IMG/VR virus record: IMGVR_UViG_3300038468_000190
Location: 32,001 to 96,000 of that record
DNA from: a virus
DNA: 64,000 bases
Reading direction: 5' to 3' (one strand)
Made by a program: the position numbers and the translations under genes. The notes below the pieces were generated by a model that saw nothing but the letters and a program-made list of their open reading frames with translations, was not told the DNA's origin and did no database searches. Shown here in pieces: positions 20,972 through 61,900 of this stretch (its first letter is position 1; every line of letters begins with the position of its first letter).

Positions 20972-21802
20972 ATGAAACACCTTCGCATCTGGGCATTGTG
21001 CCTCCTCACGGTCTTCGGTATTTCTCGAACGGCGTCTGCGACGCGGACCGAGTCGCTCGCCCGCTGGCTCTTCGAGACGGCCAAGGAGCTTCCGCGCAGT
21101 CACGCGCCAGGCGAGACGGAGTCCGAAGAGCACGCGCGCCTCGAGCGCGTGTCGAAGGCGTACGCCCAGGCGGTCGTGCCGTACGCCGACGGCAAGGGCT
21201 GGACGGCGAGCGAGCTCGCCATGGCCCTGCTCATCCTCATCGCCGAAGAGACGAAGCTCGACAAGAGGATCCACGAGGGGACCGGGCACCCCGTCTGGCA
21301 CGAAGATCACGGCCGGTCGAAGTGCCTCGGCCAGGTGCAGGCCTCTGGCCTCGTGCCGCGCCCGATCTGGGCAACGCTCACGGGCTCGGACGACGACGCC
21401 ACGCTCCGCTGCGCCGAGGCGACGGCGACCGTGTGGGTGTCGATGGCCAAGCAGTGCGGCGTCTGGTACAGCCAGCGTGCGAGCCGGGCAAGCGTCGCGG
21501 CGACGTTCATGGCGTATGGGAGCGGCGGGAGCTGCACCCCCGGCGAGCGAGAGTGGGCGCGGGCGGACAAGTGGCTCGCCCGCATGCAAAAGCGCCCGGA
21601 CCGCTCGCCCATCCGGGGCTACCGGCGGGCGTTCCCGTCGGAGGTCCCGGACGACGTAGAGCGGGAGGCGACGGCGCTCCTCGGGAGCGAAGACTTCCGC
21701 ATCGGTCACGAACGCCGGATGGACGGCTGGGCCTTGCGGGTCGAGCGGCACGCCGACGGCAAGGTCGGCGTCAGCGTCTTTTTGGAGGACAGTCCCCAAT
21801 GA
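20972..21802 (+). CDS. Secreted protein, possible lysozyme/transglycosylase-like fold; contains a CRISPR protospacer match
   Basis: Signal peptide MKHLRIWALCLLTVFG; LIAEET...EDHGRSKCLGQV. Confidence 0.55.
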   Translation: MKHLRIWALCLLTVFGISRTASATRTESLARWLFETAKELPRSHAPGETESEEHARLERVSKAYAQAVVPYADGKGWTASELAMALLILIAEETKLDKRIHEGTGHPVWHEDHGRSKCLGQVQASGLVPRPIWATLTGSDDDATLRCAEATATVWVSMAKQCGVWYSQRASRASVAATFMAYGSGGSCTPGEREWARADKWLARMQKRPDRSPIRGYRRAFPSEVPDDVEREATALLGSEDFRIGHERRMDGWALRVERHADGKVGVSVFLEDSPQ

Positions 21803-33340: not shown

Positions 33341-34153
33341 TTAGTACGAGCTTCGGAGCGCCCGGCAGCGCCGGAGCCCCTCTTCTAAGTTCCCGTCCTC
33401 GAGCGCGCGGACGGCCATGTCGAGGATGAGGGCCTGGCTCCCCCGGACCCGCCGCCAGTTCTCGGCGAGCGAGGGGTGGTCGCCATAGTACGTCTCGAAC
33501 CGCTCCGGGTGCCGGAAGAGGACGCGTCCGATGAGCATCTCGTCCGTCGCGACGTAGCCCAAGTCTAGCGAGAGCTCCCACTCCTTCTCCATCTCGGCGG
33601 CAAGCCATCGGATCTCCGCCGGTCGCGCCGACCAGAGCCCACCGCCGACGGGCCACCAGTGTCGCTCGTAGTAGCGGTCGACGGAGTATCGCGCCGAGCG
33701 GGGCACGTAGGAGATTTCCGAGAGCCGGATCTTCCCCGGCTCGGGAGGCCTCGCGAGGACCTCGTGGAGCGTCTCGCCCTCGCGGTGAGGCAGGCAGAGG
33801 TCGGCCCACGTGAGCACGGCGTCTGCGTTCACTTGGGACGCGGCGTCGACCATCCAGGAAATCCGATGCCGCATGAGGCAGAAGTAGCGCGGCGTGTCCT
33901 TCAGAGGGTCCCATCCGATCCGCGAGTGCTGGAGATTTTGGGTGATGCGATCGATGTCGGAAAAGTCCGGTGCGATGACGGGTACGGTCAATATCCTGCG
34001 GAACGCCGTCCGCTCGATAAAGTCGTCGTCCGCGTAGACGACCATCGACACACCCGCGTGACCGAGGAGCCAGGATGACCGAACGGCCCACTCAGCGGTC
34101 GGCGTGCGTCGCTCCTCGAATTTCTCGAGGTTGTAGAAGCCGGTGACGATCAT
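33341..34153 (-). CDS. HtrL/YibB-like glycosyltransferase
   Basis: MIVTGFYNL...VGGGLW...GYVATDE...YYGDH; paralogous to the C-terminal half of 31164-32744. Confidence 0.65.
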   Translation of the reverse strand: MIVTGFYNLEKFEERRTPTAEWAVRSSWLLGHAGVSMVVYADDDFIERTAFRRILTVPVIAPDFSDIDRITQNLQHSRIGWDPLKDTPRYFCLMRHRISWMVDAASQVNADAVLTWADLCLPHREGETLHEVLARPPEPGKIRLSEISYVPRSARYSVDRYYERHWWPVGGGLWSARPAEIRWLAAEMEKEWELSLDLGYVATDEMLIGRVLFRHPERFETYYGDHPSLAENWRRVRGSQALILDMAVRALEDGNLEEGLRRCRALRSSY

Positions 34154-36228
34154 GGCCATTGCCGGATGCTCCGGAGCACCAGCTCGACATCGAACGTCGC
34201 CCAGCGCGCTTCTCTGTCCTCGACGCCGTAGGTCGCGATGAGCCGGCGGCCGAGTTTCGCGAGTCCGCAGCAGTACTCGACGCCTGCGTGATCGAAGTAC
34301 CAGGGGAGCGACACGCCGACCACGGTCGGGACGTCGCCTTCGAGGAGCACCCAGCGGTGGCCGTAGATCGAGTATTCCCAGCTCGCCGTATTGGGCATGT
34401 ACGCCGTCTCGTGGACGACAGCGAGCCACCGATTGCGAGAGATCTGTACGGGCGAAGAGCTCCCCTTGAAGCGAGCGAGGCGCCGGGCGGGCGTGTAACG
34501 CCGAAACTCTTGGCAGGCTCCGGTCTCCGTGTCGACTTCGACGATCACGAACGGGTCCCACGAATAGATGACAAGGAGCGTCCGCTGTCCGACGTTGCCC
34601 TCGATGGACCACGGGACCCAGTTTTTCTCGCGTGCACCGTCGTGCTTCTGACCGTAGTCGAGCGTCTTCAATTCCGCGACGCTCCGGAGGTCGTCGCTCA
34701 TGCGACCGAGGACGACTCGCGGCCAGCCGCCCGCGCCCGGCGTTTGGCAGCTCGTCGCCGTAAACCAGAGCGCCCCGTTGTGCCGTACCCAGCGCTTGTC
34801 TTCGAGCCCCCGGATACGCGTGAGCTCCCATTCGGCAGGGAGCGTCTCCTCGATTTCTACTGCGTCGCTCGTCACGACGAGTGCGTCGTCATTGAGCTCG
34901 GCTTCCGAGACGGCGCCGCGCGTGAGAAACGTCCCCCCGTGCGGGTCGTAGTAGCGGCCGTTTCTTTGGGTGTAGTTCACGAGGCGAAGGTGCACATCGA
35001 AGGAGTTATAGGCCTTCGCGGCCGGCGCGATCGTTGGGTTGGTCGCGACGTACGGCAGCCCGTATTTGTCGTCGAGTCCCGCCGGCACGGGGAAGGTCCC
35101 CTTCCCGAGGCTCGGAAACTCCGACAGGTAAAAGGTCTGATTGCACGCGAAGTGATCGTAGCGATCGGCCGATTCGCCGCGGCGAAGAACGAGCTTCTCG
35201 GCCGCTTCGGCTCCTATCGCTCGGCCTCCGACGGCGTAATAGCCGACGATCGAGGTCTCGTAGAGCGGCTCCTTGTCGTTGGCATCGGATTCGACGAAGA
35301 GCTTATCGCCCGAGCGCGGGAGCGCCCTCGCCCTCTCCGCGAACATGAACGCGAGGTTGTTCTTCCCTGCCAGCCGAAAGTGCGTCGCGAGGCGCGAGAG
35401 GGGCTCGGCTCGATGGGGCCGTTCCTCGTGGGCGCGAAGGAGCGCGGCCATACCGGCATCCTCCTCTCCTAGCGCGAGGAGCGCGCGCCCGATCTTGTAG
35501 AGCGAATACCAGATTTCTTCGTCCCAGCCGCCGAGGAGGCGCCGCCGCGTGTAAAAGGGGATGGCCTTTGCGAACTCGCCGATGTCGAAATACGATTGAG
35601 CGAGGTAGAAGAGGTAGCGCACGTTGTTCGGCTCGGTCTCGAGCCCCTCGGTGAGCAGGCGAATGTCCCGTGCGGTCTTGTCTCCCTTGGCTCCTCCGTC
35701 GCCTATGTCCTGGATCCAAAGGTGCGGCATTGGCGTCGGTGTGCAGTTGGGCTCGGGGCTCCAGTACTCGTGCGTGACGCCGACGCTCGTCCACTTGTGC
35801 GACAGTCGGCAGAGCCGGGTGTTCGACCAGCGGAGATCTCCCGTCCGCTGTTCGACCTCGTACCAGGGCTCGGTGAGCTTCTGTCGGTCGAAGAGCCCGG
35901 TCGAGTGCAGGATCATGTCCGCGTCGAGGCAGAGCATGTAGGTCCGCGCTGGGGGCCAGTATATGGCGGCTCGCTCGGCGGCTCGCTCGGCGGCCCGGGT
36001 GCGGTTATGGCCAAAGTTTCGCCACGGGTCGTGCCACACGACGGTCCGAAGGTTGTGCGCTCGGCCGAAGTCTTCGATCTTCTTGACGGTGTCGTCGGTC
36101 GAGCCGGTATCGGCCACGAACACCGCGCTCAAGAGCGGCCGCGCGCTCTCGAGGCATCGCTCGATGACGCGCGACTCGTTCTTGACGATCATGGATAGGA
36201 CAAGGCGGATCTCTAGGTCGTCGGACAT
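34150..36228 (-). CDS. GT2 glycosyltransferase + TPR + beta-propeller (GH130-like) protein
   Basis: MIVKNESRVIERCL, DTGSTDDT, LDAD, GVTHEY; TPR RYLFYLAQSY; GLEDKR, EKNWVP, VEYCCG. Confidence 0.85.
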   Translation of the reverse strand: MSDDLEIRLVLSMIVKNESRVIERCLESARPLLSAVFVADTGSTDDTVKKIEDFGRAHNLRTVVWHDPWRNFGHNRTRAAERAAERAAIYWPPARTYMLCLDADMILHSTGLFDRQKLTEPWYEVEQRTGDLRWSNTRLCRLSHKWTSVGVTHEYWSPEPNCTPTPMPHLWIQDIGDGGAKGDKTARDIRLLTEGLETEPNNVRYLFYLAQSYFDIGEFAKAIPFYTRRRLLGGWDEEIWYSLYKIGRALLALGEEDAGMAALLRAHEERPHRAEPLSRLATHFRLAGKNNLAFMFAERARALPRSGDKLFVESDANDKEPLYETSIVGYYAVGGRAIGAEAAEKLVLRRGESADRYDHFACNQTFYLSEFPSLGKGTFPVPAGLDDKYGLPYVATNPTIAPAAKAYNSFDVHLRLVNYTQRNGRYYDPHGGTFLTRGAVSEAELNDDALVVTSDAVEIEETLPAEWELTRIRGLEDKRWVRHNGALWFTATSCQTPGAGGWPRVVLGRMSDDLRSVAELKTLDYGQKHDGAREKNWVPWSIEGNVGQRTLLVIYSWDPFVIVEVDTETGACQEFRRYTPARRLARFKGSSSPVQISRNRWLAVVHETAYMPNTASWEYSIYGHRWVLLEGDVPTVVGVSLPWYFDHAGVEYCCGLAKLGRRLIATYGVEDREARWATFDVELVLRSIRQWP

Positions 36229-36327
36229 GTGTAGCTCCCGGGCAAATCTAAGCCCAGATCCGGTCGCCGGGCGAGCCCTTTCAGGCTGGGCTTCCCTTGC
36301 TCGCTTAACCGGGCTATTCTCGTCAGC

Positions 36328-36774
36328 ATGTTCGGGTCGTCAGCGGACGTATTCGAGAACATCCCGCCTGAAGTCACTCGCGAGTCTGGCCCCCCGGCCC
36401 CGGCTGGCGTCGGTGCGACGCCCGACGGCCTAGGCATGCAGGGCATGGGAGCGTACGCCACGGCGATGAGCGGCAAGGTCGACTTCCTCGAGCCCGGCGA
36501 CGCGTCGCCCGAAGCGGCTCTTCGGAGCGCGGGGCTCGTGTCGCTCGCCGCGGCAGTCGCTTTCGGAGCGGGACTCGCGCTCGGCGGAGGCTGGGGCGCG
36601 ATAAGCGGCATCATGCTCTCGGGCTCCGGCTTCAACATTTACCGAGCGCAGAAGTGGTGGGGCTCGCCCGAGCCGAGCGAGAAACACGAAGCGGTCGTCT
36701 CGGCGATCTTCGGCGCGATTGGTCTCGCTGCCGGCGGCTACTCGGCATACAAGGCCTACCAGGCGAAAGGTTAG
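36328..36774 (+). CDS. Membrane protein
   Basis: Two to three Gly/Ala-rich hydrophobic segments. Confidence 0.6.
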   Translation: MFGSSADVFENIPPEVTRESGPPAPAGVGATPDGLGMQGMGAYATAMSGKVDFLEPGDASPEAALRSAGLVSLAAAVAFGAGLALGGGWGAISGIMLSGSGFNIYRAQKWWGSPEPSEKHEAVVSAIFGAIGLAAGGYSAYKAYQAKG

Positions 36775-36775
36775 T

Positions 36776-38943
<2,168 letters not shown>

Positions 38944-38954
38944 TCGACAATGAG

Positions 38955-40484
38955 ATGACGATCAGGGCTGAAACGGGCACTTCTGGGCGAGGTACGCCGC
39001 GCGTCCCGCCGGGTGCCAGCGCCACGGGACTGACCTTCGACAGCCCGCAGGATCTTGCCGCCTATAACGCGACTGCGTTGCCGCATGACTCGGTCGTCGA
39101 GGTCGGCGTGGTGCACGACTCGTATCGTTACATCCCGTCGCCGAGCGCCGAGCTTCTAGCAGCCGTAGATGGCTTGAACGTCATCGCGCCTGTCGCGCCC
39201 GCAGGTGCGGTATTCGAGCGGCTCTATCTGCCTAATCAGGTAGCTTGGTACCAGACAGCGTGGACGATCGATCCGGTAGCGGGTGACGACCGCAACGCCG
39301 GCACGGCTCTGTCGCCGCTCAGGACGCTGAACGAGTGGGCTACCCGCATGCAGAACGGGGTCGTACAGCAGGACGTCACCGTCACCGTCCTTGCCGGCAC
39401 CGCCAACACGAAGCCGATCTACCTCCGCATTCGGATCAGCTACGCGGCGAGCGCGATCATTCGAATCGTCGGCACGGTCACTCCTGATGCCGGCCACACG
39501 GTGACGGCCGTCACGGCGAGCGTTCCGACGACTTCCGCCGGAACGAACGTGCGCGGATTCATCTCGAGCGCAGACGCTTTCACGGACAAGTCGCGCATTC
39601 GGTTCACGTCCGGCGCTCGGAGCGGCTACACGTGCCAGGTAACGGGCTTCAACGTCGTCAACACGTCGGCGTTCATATCGACCCCGGGCATCCTCTCGAA
39701 CCTTCACCCGCCGAACTCTATCTCTCCGGCCACGGGGTTTCCGGCGATCAACGACACCTACGTCGTCGACACGTTGAACACCATCGTCGACACGACCGAC
39801 ATGAACATCGAGGTCGACGGATCTGGTCGATTGATCTTCGAGGACGTGAATCTCAGAAACATCTCGAACCCGCAAAACCTCATCGTTTGTCGCGGCGCAA
39901 ACCCTGGGAACTTCGGTTCGTCCGTTCTTTTCTACAACTGTATCGCCCCGAGCGGCGCAGAGGTCATCTGGCTTTCGGACTCCGAGTGCTCGTTCGTCAA
40001 CTGCGCGTTCGACGCCTTCTTCGCGTCGGCCAATAACTCGGTCGTCTTCATGCGCACGTGCGTGTTCCGTCTCTTGAGCGGCAGCGGCCTATCGTGTCAA
40101 GCCGTCGAGGGCGGCTACATCCAATTCTCGAGCCCGAATTGCTTCGACGGCGCCGGGATCAATATCGACGACGGATTCATGGAGTTCAACAGCGGCGACG
40201 CGCAGTGGTGCGACGGGCCTGGAGGAACCGGCCTTCAGACCTTCGGCAAGGTGTACGTGCACAGCGGCTTTCTCATCTGGGGCGGCAGCGCCAACAGCGG
40301 GAACAACTTTGCGCGCTTCCTTCGAGTCTTCTCGGGCGGCGGTATCTATTCGACGACAGGCGCAGCGCCGACAGTCGGCCCGAACGTCACGAGCGATGTT
40401 TTGGTCGGTAACTTTGCCACCAGCTACGCCGCTATTCCGTACGTCAACGCCACGAATCTGGCGGCGTACACCACGATCGCTTGA
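38955..40484 (+). CDS. Beta-helix-like spike/fibre protein
   Basis: IDPVAGDDRNAGTALSPLRTL motif followed by Asn/Cys/Gly-rich beta repeats. Confidence 0.65.
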   Translation: MTIRAETGTSGRGTPRVPPGASATGLTFDSPQDLAAYNATALPHDSVVEVGVVHDSYRYIPSPSAELLAAVDGLNVIAPVAPAGAVFERLYLPNQVAWYQTAWTIDPVAGDDRNAGTALSPLRTLNEWATRMQNGVVQQDVTVTVLAGTANTKPIYLRIRISYAASAIIRIVGTVTPDAGHTVTAVTASVPTTSAGTNVRGFISSADAFTDKSRIRFTSGARSGYTCQVTGFNVVNTSAFISTPGILSNLHPPNSISPATGFPAINDTYVVDTLNTIVDTTDMNIEVDGSGRLIFEDVNLRNISNPQNLIVCRGANPGNFGSSVLFYNCIAPSGAEVIWLSDSECSFVNCAFDAFFASANNSVVFMRTCVFRLLSGSGLSCQAVEGGYIQFSSPNCFDGAGINIDDGFMEFNSGDAQWCDGPGGTGLQTFGKVYVHSGFLIWGGSANSGNNFARFLRVFSGGGIYSTTGAAPTVGPNVTSDVLVGNFATSYAAIPYVNATNLAAYTTIA

Positions 40485-41917: not shown

Positions 41918-42655
41918 ATGTCGCGCTACGGAAGCATCGTCTTGGGATTGGGAGCGAGCACGACGCGCGTCGTCCGGGCGACCGATCCTGCCATCCTCGA
42001 GTCGCTCGTGAACCAACAAATCACGGCACTCGGCGGGGGCTTTACGATCGTTGCTCTGACGCTGGCAGGTGCCGGTAACGGGCAAGCGTTCACGGTCACG
42101 ATCGAGGCTGGGGCGGCGGCGGCTGTCCTAGGCGGGTTTCTTGCGCCGCCGACTGTTCGGTGCGTAGCCGGATCGGATCCCGAGGCGCTTCGTGCCGGAC
42201 TCGAGTCGAAGATCACGGCTCCCGGGACGCTCGCCGACGTGCAGGTCGCCGGTAGCTCTGCCGGCAACTACTTCATGGCGATGGCGGTCTTCGGGAGCCT
42301 GCTGGCGACGGGGGCAGCGGGACCTACGGAAACACGCTCGAACAAAGGCATGCCGGCCCTGACGACCGTCAACGACGGCGATCAGGGATGCGCAACGGCC
42401 GTGACGACGACGCCGGCGGCGTCGAGCGCGGCGGGAGGCTACGTCGGCGCCCGCGTGAACGGTGTCGGCGCGACGACCGGCGACGGCACGACGGTCGGAG
42501 TCATGTGTTACTTCTCCGGGACCGGCGGAGCGACCGCGCGAGCGATGAAGGACATCGTCGCGGGCGACACCTTCCACTGGAATCAGTCCGTCGCCGGCTA
42601 CAACCTCGACGCCGCGACGGACATCATCGACTACATGTACGGCGTGGACAGCTAA
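41918..42655 (+). CDS. Paralog-family protein with a distinct C-terminal domain
   Basis: MSRYG start and LAGAGNGQAFTVTIEAG closely match the collagen protein N-terminus. Confidence 0.7.
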   Translation: MSRYGSIVLGLGASTTRVVRATDPAILESLVNQQITALGGGFTIVALTLAGAGNGQAFTVTIEAGAAAAVLGGFLAPPTVRCVAGSDPEALRAGLESKITAPGTLADVQVAGSSAGNYFMAMAVFGSLLATGAAGPTETRSNKGMPALTTVNDGDQGCATAVTTTPAASSAAGGYVGARVNGVGATTGDGTTVGVMCYFSGTGGATARAMKDIVAGDTFHWNQSVAGYNLDAATDIIDYMYGVDS

Positions 42656-60855: not shown

Positions 60856-61900
60856 CTGACGAACGCCATCGGTCACCGTAGGCCTTCCACGCGATGAATC
60901 AGATCCTTGCCGAGTGGTCGCACCCTCTGACGAACGCCATCGGTCACCATAGGCCTTCCGAGCGAGAGCGTTGTGCAGGCGGCCGCGGTGATGCGAGCTG
61001 ACGAACGCCATCCGTCACCCGGAGCCCTTGCGAGTAATATTGAGTGGCATGCCCGCGGGGACCTGAGTACTGACGAACGCCATCCGTCACCGTAGGCCTT
61101 CCGAGCTCGATGCGCCGGTTGCGCCTGTCGAGCCCGTGGGACTGACGAACGCCATCCGTCACCGTAGGCCTTATACGAGTCGCCCGAAAACATGGGCGCC
61201 GATGGGTGATCGAACTCTGACGAACGCCATCGGTCACCGTAGGCCTTCCGATGGCGAACGACAGGCGTCCGCACCCCGGACCGAACTGCTGACGAACGCC
61301 ATCGGTCACCGGAGCCCTTTGCGAGGTCGAGATCGAAATACGCTCGCCTCGTCCGAACTCTGACGAACGCCATCGGTCACCGGAGCCCTTGCGAGTCGCC
61401 ACCGCCGTCGAGAACGGCGAGCTCCGGAGCACCTGACGAACGCCATCCGTCACCGTAGGCCTTCCGAGAAGCAGTGCGGCGTCTGGTACAGCCAGCGCGC
61501 AACCCTGACGAACGCCATCCGTCACCGTAGGCCTTCCGAGCAGTAGCCGCGCCGGATGGATGGCGCTAACATTCGCACTGACGAACGCCATCCGTCACCG
61601 TAGGCCTTCCGAGTTTCCAACGGAGAGACTTGTACGGACAGAAAATGTCTGACGAACGCCATCCGTCACCGTAGGCCTTCCGAGTTCTCCGCCTGCGGGA
61701 CTTCCGGCACGCGATCCATCTGACGAACGCCATCCGTCACCGTAGGCCTTCCGAGCCGGAGGGCGGAGGGAATGATTCCGGAGAGACTCTCCTGACGAAC
61801 GCCATCCGTCACCGTAGGCCTTCCGAGCTTTCTTTTTCGCCTCTTTAGACCTCTGCGCGTCTTCCTGACGAACGCCATCCGTCACCGTAGGCCTTCCGAG
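60856..61900 (-). CRISPR. CRISPR array, 15 repeats and 14 spacers (34-37 nt)
   Basis: 36-nt repeat, minus-strand consensus CTCGGAAGGCCTACGGTGACGGATGGCGTTCGTCAG; plus-strand starts 60856, 60927, 60998, 61070, 61142, 61217, 61289, 61360, 61433, 61505, 61578, 61649, 61720, 61792, 61865; the seven right-most are identical and decay increases leftward, with remnants at 60742, 60772, 60807. Confidence 0.98.

Follow-up and report, generated by a model that had tools for sequence, protein, structure and literature searches.

A spacer in a virus-borne CRISPR array matches the carrier's own collagen-like fibre gene at 35 of 36 positions

The CRISPR array of a large soil virus contains a spacer, the eleventh of 14, that matches the collagen-like fibre gene of the same genome at all but one of its 36 positions, the single difference being synonymous and lying at guide position 7. 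We put at roughly 50% the reading that the virus carries a CRISPR system which is probably non-cutting and is used among related viruses, and that spacer 11 is one of its near-self spacers. The self-match adds a further case to a known pattern: earlier work on virus-borne arrays described point mutations in the loci of the carriers themselves by which self-targeting is prevented (Medvedeva et al. 2019, PMC6858448), and since near-self spacers have already been published, the match is unsurprising by itself. Its interest lies in the setting, namely a family of ~45 proteins with an invariant Arg in place of a catalytic Glu, a live array, and a tracr-like RNA hidden in an open reading frame (ORF). 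In the literature searched, we found no description of a RuvC-II-Arg TnpB-like effector with an anti-repeat in its ORF tail and with live arrays on large viruses; possibly, the carrier system belongs to one of the V-U variants, unnamed and with changes in their catalytic sites, that PMC10691335 lists.

Results

The viral genome and the orientation of its array

The stretch of DNA analysed here (the window) comprises 64,000 nt, bases 32001-96000 of a 140,124-bp IMG/VR record (G000) that is 100% complete according to CheckV. The genome has a G+C content of 66%, and its gene products include a DnaB helicase, an integrase-domain protein, and glycosyltransferases. Its relatives have SLT and VanY cell-wall enzymes, so the host is bacterial. 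Another collagen-like gene (minus strand, bases 1-900 and 139400-140124 of the record) runs off both ends of the contig, the first 218 nt of which are 96% identical to the last 218 nt. A gene that extends across both ends, together with the identity of those ends, indicates that the assembly broke inside collagen repeats, and from the sequence, circular permutation or terminal redundancy of the genome is possible.

The array and its surroundings comprise the following features:

60856..61900, minus strand: CRISPR array of 15 repeats of 36 nt and 14 spacers
61106..61141, minus strand: spacer 11, an array spacer of 36 nt, from the parsed array and its exact location
61142..61177, minus strand: repeat preceding spacer 11, with 4 substitutions at its 5' end and its 3' 30 nt intact
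62259..63774, minus strand: TnpB-like effector, core part (~505 aa, counted from the ATG at 63774)
61882..62258, minus strand: open 3' tail of the effector ORF, not protein-like, with conserved RNA-like blocks up to the first repeat
62028..62064, minus strand: tracr-like anti-repeat, complementary over the full length of the repeat and located in the effector ORF's 3' tail

Spacers are numbered from the effector-proximal end, the unit under study being spacer 11 of 14. The array is co-oriented with the effector gene and begins inside the 3' end of its ORF; its leader lies at the high-coordinate end, and its repeats are perfect near the ORF and degenerate towards 60856. Spacer 11 itself is placed among degenerate repeats, and the repeat that follows it is intact. 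All relatives examined (L015, L017, L018, L024, and L031) have the same effector-array layout, the array coming directly after the effector gene in six loci. Neither Cas1 nor Cas2 was found among the genes of this virus. Compared with bacterial genomes, the repeat core gave six single, scattered matches in Actinomycetota, none of them in an array, and is uninformative on the host. The full array had no match among GenBank phages.

Four lines of evidence orient the array: the degenerate repeats at its far end, the turnover of leader-side spacers between two sister arrays, an anti-repeat whose G-U pairs work only on the effector's strand, and the TnpB structures nearest to the effector, in which the guide lies 3' of the scaffold. 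The sister arrays in question, L018 and L024, have their trailer spacers in common and differ in those on the leader side, a pattern that reads as the signature of polarised spacer gain. The guide therefore comes after the repeat, and position 7 is PAM/TAM-proximal. An earlier reading made from the sequence only had placed position 7 in the seed of type V effectors, and repeat decay, spacer turnover, the strand of the anti-repeat, and the TnpB fold all support the orientation on which that placement depends. The specificity of TnpB is set by the TAM-proximal ~12 bp (PMC10097598); by analogy, position 7 is within a stretch of this type.

Spacer 11 and the fibre gene

The target side of the match comprises two features:

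38472..38507, plus strand: near-self protospacer of spacer 11, 35/36, with the mismatch at 38478
37609..38943, plus strand: collagen-like fibre gene, 444 aa (Pfam Collagen, 6.8e-18)

When the window was searched with the 36-mer of spacer 11, a single exact occurrence was found, on the minus strand at 61106-61141, and one further match, on the plus strand at 38472-38507, with 1 mismatch (35/36). Comparable matches were given by 0 of 100 shuffled windows, and 0 are expected by chance. The mismatch, at guide position 7, corresponds to base 38478, where the genome has A and the spacer G. This base is the third position of a codon in ORF 37609-38943 that reads ACA in the genome and ACG in the spacer, both encoding Thr. 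Aligning the spacer to the window has thus confirmed the 35/36 match, the position-7 difference, and the synonymous Thr codon that the sequence-only reading had reported. Spacer 11 is the sense sequence of the fibre gene, so its guide would pair with the template strand. The rest of the repeat units of the fibre gene reach no more than 29-30/36 against spacer 11; in the sibling contig L126, the fibre ortholog reaches 28/36 and a paralogous collagen-like gene 31/36. These identities place the 35/36 match well clear of what collagen-like repeats give as background.

In the fibre protein, an N-terminal domain is followed by a G-X-Y stalk, which contains 21-aa repeat units, and by a globular head at the C-terminus. 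Its matches to PHROG tail-fibre families are through the repeats only, and its C-terminal 150 residues resemble BclA_C/C1q-like heads in the ESM Atlas, a resemblance that serves as a lead only. The protospacer of spacer 11 lies within the last, sequence-unique repeat unit, where the reading frame and the flanks are intact. An exact-protein look-up of the fibre protein, aimed at synonymous alleles, returned no record. In relatives, the fibre gene is syntenic with glycosyltransferase neighbours. Synteny in L020 and L126 extends to the whole module at 34150-40484, in which the collagen-like gene is accompanied by a glycosyltransferase, two small genes, and a 509-aa gene, and the sibling has an additional collagen-like gene (526 aa) three genes downstream of the fibre ortholog.

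Source of the spacer and polarity of the change

The sibling contig L126, whose copy of gene 20972-21802 is in the same 90%-identity protein cluster as the copy here, carries a syntenic, collinear fibre gene with 81% DNA identity to that of this genome. Against spacer 11, the orthologous 36-mer of this one sampled sibling differs at 8 of 36 positions. Since even this ortholog is so distant, the source of spacer 11 is taken to be this lineage itself or a near-clonal strain. The mismatched codon is ACG both in the sibling ortholog and in all paralogous units of the fibre gene, and the A at 38478 is therefore probably derived. On sequence comparison it is probably the genome, not spacer 11, that carries the change; either the target mutated or the source strain retained the older base.

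In IMG/VR and JGI metagenome contigs, we found no synonymous-variant target of spacer 11 with every third codon position left free, no strain with the G allele of the fibre gene, and no better target than the virus's own genome. The search for the exact 36-mer in viral metagenomes, which the sequence-only reading had proposed as a check, likewise gave no perfect target in either collection. That reading had offered two interpretations, the first of which was acquisition from a close relative followed by escape through the seed change, and this is the better supported half. Its source stands, narrowed to this lineage or a near-clonal strain by the distance of the sibling (8/36). Its escape by selection does not fare as well: no G-allele strain was found, no PAM was derived, and the corresponding one-base mismatch of a related virus, at position 16, goes back to a change in the spacer and not in the target. 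Escape selected through the position-7 change is plausible but unproven.

A TnpB-like effector with a non-canonical RuvC site

The RuvC positions of the effector were located from alignments:

62890-62892, minus strand: E
62587-62589, minus strand: R
62311-62313, minus strand: E

The effector ORF spans 61882-63774/63801 on the minus strand and encodes, beside the CRISPR array, a single effector of TnpB/RuvC fold with a zinc ribbon. It matches PF07282, PF12323, and, weakly, PF01385, and its best solved relatives by sequence are TnpBs. In a Foldseek search with its AF2 model, the matches were TnpB, Cas12f, and Cas12p, the TnpB structures 8iaz and 8h1j being best (TM 0.78-0.80). The best PADLOC profile was Cas12u4 (8.1e-44, 148 bits), and its score is too close to those of Cas12f (6.1e-40) and NCBIfam guided_TnpB (7.9e-41) for an assignment to type V-U4. 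Membership of Cas12m was rejected, with a sequence match of E = 0.52 over the zinc ribbon only, a TM of 0.39-0.50, and an anti-repeat present. About 45 relatives of the effector were found, 34-82% identical and mostly on virus-like contigs of about 40-140 kb. As a single protein query in IMG/VR, the effector had no match, and a later search with the family alignment gave two relatives.

In the alignment of 42 members, the RuvC-I position is E in 34 and D in 8, and the RuvC-III position is E in 23 and D in 19. At RuvC-II, R replaces the catalytic Glu in 42/42 members. The ordinary TnpBs used as an outgroup retain D-E-D. The catalytic D-E-D triad of type V effectors is thus replaced in this family by E/D-R-E/D with an invariant Arg, and with such a non-canonical site the effector most likely binds DNA and is probably non-cutting. 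The effector core is under purifying selection, its dN/dS being 0.18 against an 82%-identical relative.

An RNA-like tail with a covarying anti-repeat

The tail of the effector ORF, its last ~125 codons, is modelled as disordered (pLDDT about 30 in the AF2 model). Compared with the same 82%-identical relative, its dN/dS is 0.72, without codon periodicity, and blocks of its nucleotide sequence are conserved across loci. By these measures the tail behaves as RNA-coding, not protein-coding, sequence. An Rfam scan of the tail and the array gave no match. One invariant block of the tail, ACCGCTCGCAAACCG, is located ~70 nt ahead of the first repeat.

Over 5 loci, 86.9% of the cells in the anti-repeat:repeat duplex are paired, compared with 27-44% in slid controls. 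Changes on both sides were seen in 12 of the 29 anti-repeat:repeat pairs, and 0 of 500 shuffles were as high. The covarying duplex indicates a system with a tracr-like partner, and its G-U pairs fix the transcribed strand. Purifying selection on the effector, the covarying anti-repeat, and the turnover of leader-side spacers together imply that the system as a whole is in use.

Other near-self spacers and the drift of spacers

A second spacer of the array has a near-match in its own genome:

61469..61504, minus strand: spacer 6, the second near-self spacer, from the array parse and its near-match to the genome
21449..21484, minus strand: protospacer that spacer 6 nearly matches (33/36; guide positions 2, 4, and 7 differ)

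The target of spacer 6 is the gene at 20972-21802 on the plus strand, which encodes a 276-aa secreted-type protein. Relatives L019 and L125 match spacer 6 at 34/36, against 33/36 for self, and both have the spacer's base at position 7; the copies of the gene in L124 and L126 have a third base there. The remaining 29 nt of the target, its 3' part, are identical in all five sampled viruses and constitute the end of the gene's longest conserved run (71 nt), and the position-7 site is four-fold degenerate and variable among all relatives.

An independent complete relative (G001; 136,226 bp, with terminal repeats, an effector 47% identical, and the array also referred to as L031) supplies a third case. 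Its spacer 5 matches, at 34/35, a dual-specificity-phosphatase-like gene of the same virus (G001:13360-13394), position 16 being the one that differs. The sister array L015 has the same spacer, with the genome's base at position 16 and a different change at position 30. Parsimony indicates that the ancestral spacer matched the carrier's gene exactly and that each array copy then mutated. Homologous spacers of the L015 and G001 arrays differ by 0-3 bases, which shows that spacers drift, and the history of this pair fits the drift of tolerated self-matching spacers better than the escape of a target.

In 3/3 near-self spacers, from two genomes, the carrier locus differs from the spacer. The three targets are in unrelated genes (fibre, secreted-type protein, phosphatase), in mid-ORF and on either strand, those of spacers 11 and 6 lying 863 and 478 nt into their ORFs, and the genes are not conserved targets between lineages. 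Among the arrays and loci compared, no cross-targeting was found besides the near-self matches. No PAM-like flank is common to the three near-self targets and the four spacer-6 alleles, and the self sites may therefore never have been recognisable. The four near-self mismatches of this genome all lie within positions 1-7 (p about 0.002 under uniform placement), a clustering that is weakened by the location of spacer 6 at the edge of the 71-nt run, by the degeneracy of its position-7 site, and by the change at position 16 of the G001 spacer. Both position-7 mismatches in this genome have G in the spacer and A in the genome, and all four transition mismatches (spacers 6 and 11; G001 spacer 5) leave a G-T/U-G wobble (p about 0.06).

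Discussion

We propose that spacer 11 was captured from the fibre gene of this lineage; its donor would have been a co-infecting, near-clonal strain or the virus itself in an earlier state. The spacer belongs to the older part of an array that is carried together with the virus's own effector, a putative TnpB-derived, tracrRNA-dependent protein whose non-canonical RuvC site most likely allows DNA binding without cutting. Judging by precedent, the role of the system is most likely interference between related viruses in one cell, and this interference would operate by binding, as in Cas12m (PMC10442227, PMC11013384). The synonymous G-to-A change at guide position 7, being PAM/TAM-proximal, should weaken recognition of self; the mismatch leaves a G-T wobble, so self recognition may not be abolished.

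The closest precedent for the array is found in the portogloboviruses SPV1 and SPV2, whose mini-CRISPR arrays (PMC6858448) are likewise carried by a virus without adaptation genes and hold spacers from the genes of close relatives, the carrier's orthologous loci having point differences. The portoglobovirus arrays have 1-2 spacers and use host Cas proteins, whereas here there are 14 spacers, an effector encoded by the virus itself, and a tracr-like RNA; in addition, a matching sibling was found here in approximate form for spacer 6 (34/36) and not at all for spacer 11. Type IV-A3 plasmid systems are also nuclease-free CRISPR systems on mobile elements without an adaptation module, and they are used against competing elements with spacers acquired in trans (bioRxiv 10.1101/2023.06.23.546257). 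Unlike the system here, they are plasmid-borne and have a class 1 multi-subunit effector.

For the effector, the closest relatives in fold and sequence are the TnpBs of ISDra2 and ISFba1 (8h1j, 8iaz; PMC10097598), in which the guide RNA gene also overlaps the 3' end of the ORF and the guide is 3' of the scaffold. TnpB has an intact D-E-D triad, one fixed guide, and a transposon setting (PMC10097598); here the Glu is changed to Arg, the guide is supplied by an array through a repeat:anti-repeat duplex, and there is no transposon context. TldR proteins (PMC10705468) are TnpB descendants without a working nuclease that carry out RNA-guided DNA binding, some of them in prophages, and to this extent resemble the effector here. 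They have a single fixed promoter guide, in contrast to a multi-spacer array with turnover and near-self targets inside ORFs, and a TldR-like promoter guide was accordingly rejected on the grounds of the 14 spacers and intragenic targets. Cas12m (type V-M) is also a compact effector of type V whose RuvC triad is non-canonical; it interferes by binding alone (PMC10442227, PMC11013384), and by analogy the effector here is likely to act by binding DNA tightly without cleaving it. The two differ in that Cas12m uses crRNA alone, without a tracrRNA, whereas a covarying anti-repeat is present upstream of the array here, and in their RuvC triads, which are HDD, HEK, and others in Cas12m and E/D-R-E/D here.

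The alternative that survives best, doubtful but to be taken seriously, is that spacer 11 is a neutral relic, an old unit of a slowly decaying array whose one-base difference is inconsequential drift, because the site has no PAM, unit 11 yields no working guide, or the effector is inactive. The location of spacer 11 among degenerate repeats and the 4 substitutions in its own upstream repeat fit this account, as do the 0-3 base differences between the homologous spacers of L015 and G001 and the lack of a perfect target in public data. It also explains drift and the missing PAM-like flank as well as does a near-self spacer of a system in use. It is opposed by the purifying selection on the effector core, by the anti-repeat pairing that has been kept through compensatory changes, by the turnover of leader-side spacers, and, at spacer 11 itself, by the intact 3' portion of the preceding repeat and the intact repeat that follows.

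A near-self spacer in a system used among related viruses could also be functional as such: in a nuclease-dead, tracrRNA-guided TnpB descendant, a single seed wobble base would tell self from near-clonal rivals, or the fibre gene would be dampened. We regard this as unlikely; if it were true, self-matching guides would be a built-in feature and not scars.

Self-regulation, in which a non-cutting effector with spacer 11 would bind the virus's own fibre gene despite the wobble and tune its expression, with spacer 6 acting likewise, is decidedly unlikely. It had been the second interpretation of the sequence-only reading, that of a dead effector modulating its own fibre gene, and its premise has gained support from the RuvC-II Arg in 42/42 members; with this family-wide change from Glu to Arg, binding to self need not be lethal. 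Nuclease-dead TnpB relatives are known repressors (PMC10705468), the ancestral G001/L015 spacer was apparently a perfect match to its carrier, and the transition mismatches are without exception wobbles. Nothing, however, is specific to the control of the fibre gene. The targets are in mid-ORF and not at promoters, they lie on opposite strands relative to transcription, and a fibre, a secreted-type protein, and a phosphatase have no common theme and are not conserved as targets between lineages. A regulator would moreover be expected to have a perfect seed, where the mismatches here fall, and the guide copies of G001 and L015 drift.

An artefact, by which the contig merges two co-occurring strains or the collagen repeats are misassembled, is very improbable: such repeats are hard to assemble and the contig does break within the second collagen-like gene at both ends, but the protospacer is within the last repeat unit, which is unique and has its frame and flanks intact, the fibre gene is collinear with its ortholog on the sibling contig, the second near-self spacer has its target in non-repetitive DNA, and the same phenomenon recurs in an independent genome with terminal repeats (G001).

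The locus raises the question of how a compact, probably non-cutting effector discriminates self from sibling, how many mismatches it tolerates, and whether it is the absence of cutting that makes self-matching guides affordable to viruses. The two complete genomes provide natural guide-target pairs that are one base apart, at positions 7 and 16, and these are ready substrates for such questions.

Some minor observations concern the spacers themselves. Spacers 8, 9, and 10 (61178-61359, minus strand) all start with (C)AGTTCG, each after a variant repeat, and spacer 6 starts with GGTT, its GTT being created by the two spacer-specific mismatches at positions 2 and 4. The shared starts reflect either longer variant repeats or homogenised first spacer bases. 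In the L024 array, which is on the reverse strand, one spacer is present twice, in units 1 and 5. Finally, a spacer common to the G001 and L015 arrays matches this genome exactly at 42048-42064 over its first 16-17 nt from position 1 and then diverges, which on sequence could be chance or a seed-length target (E about 0.03).
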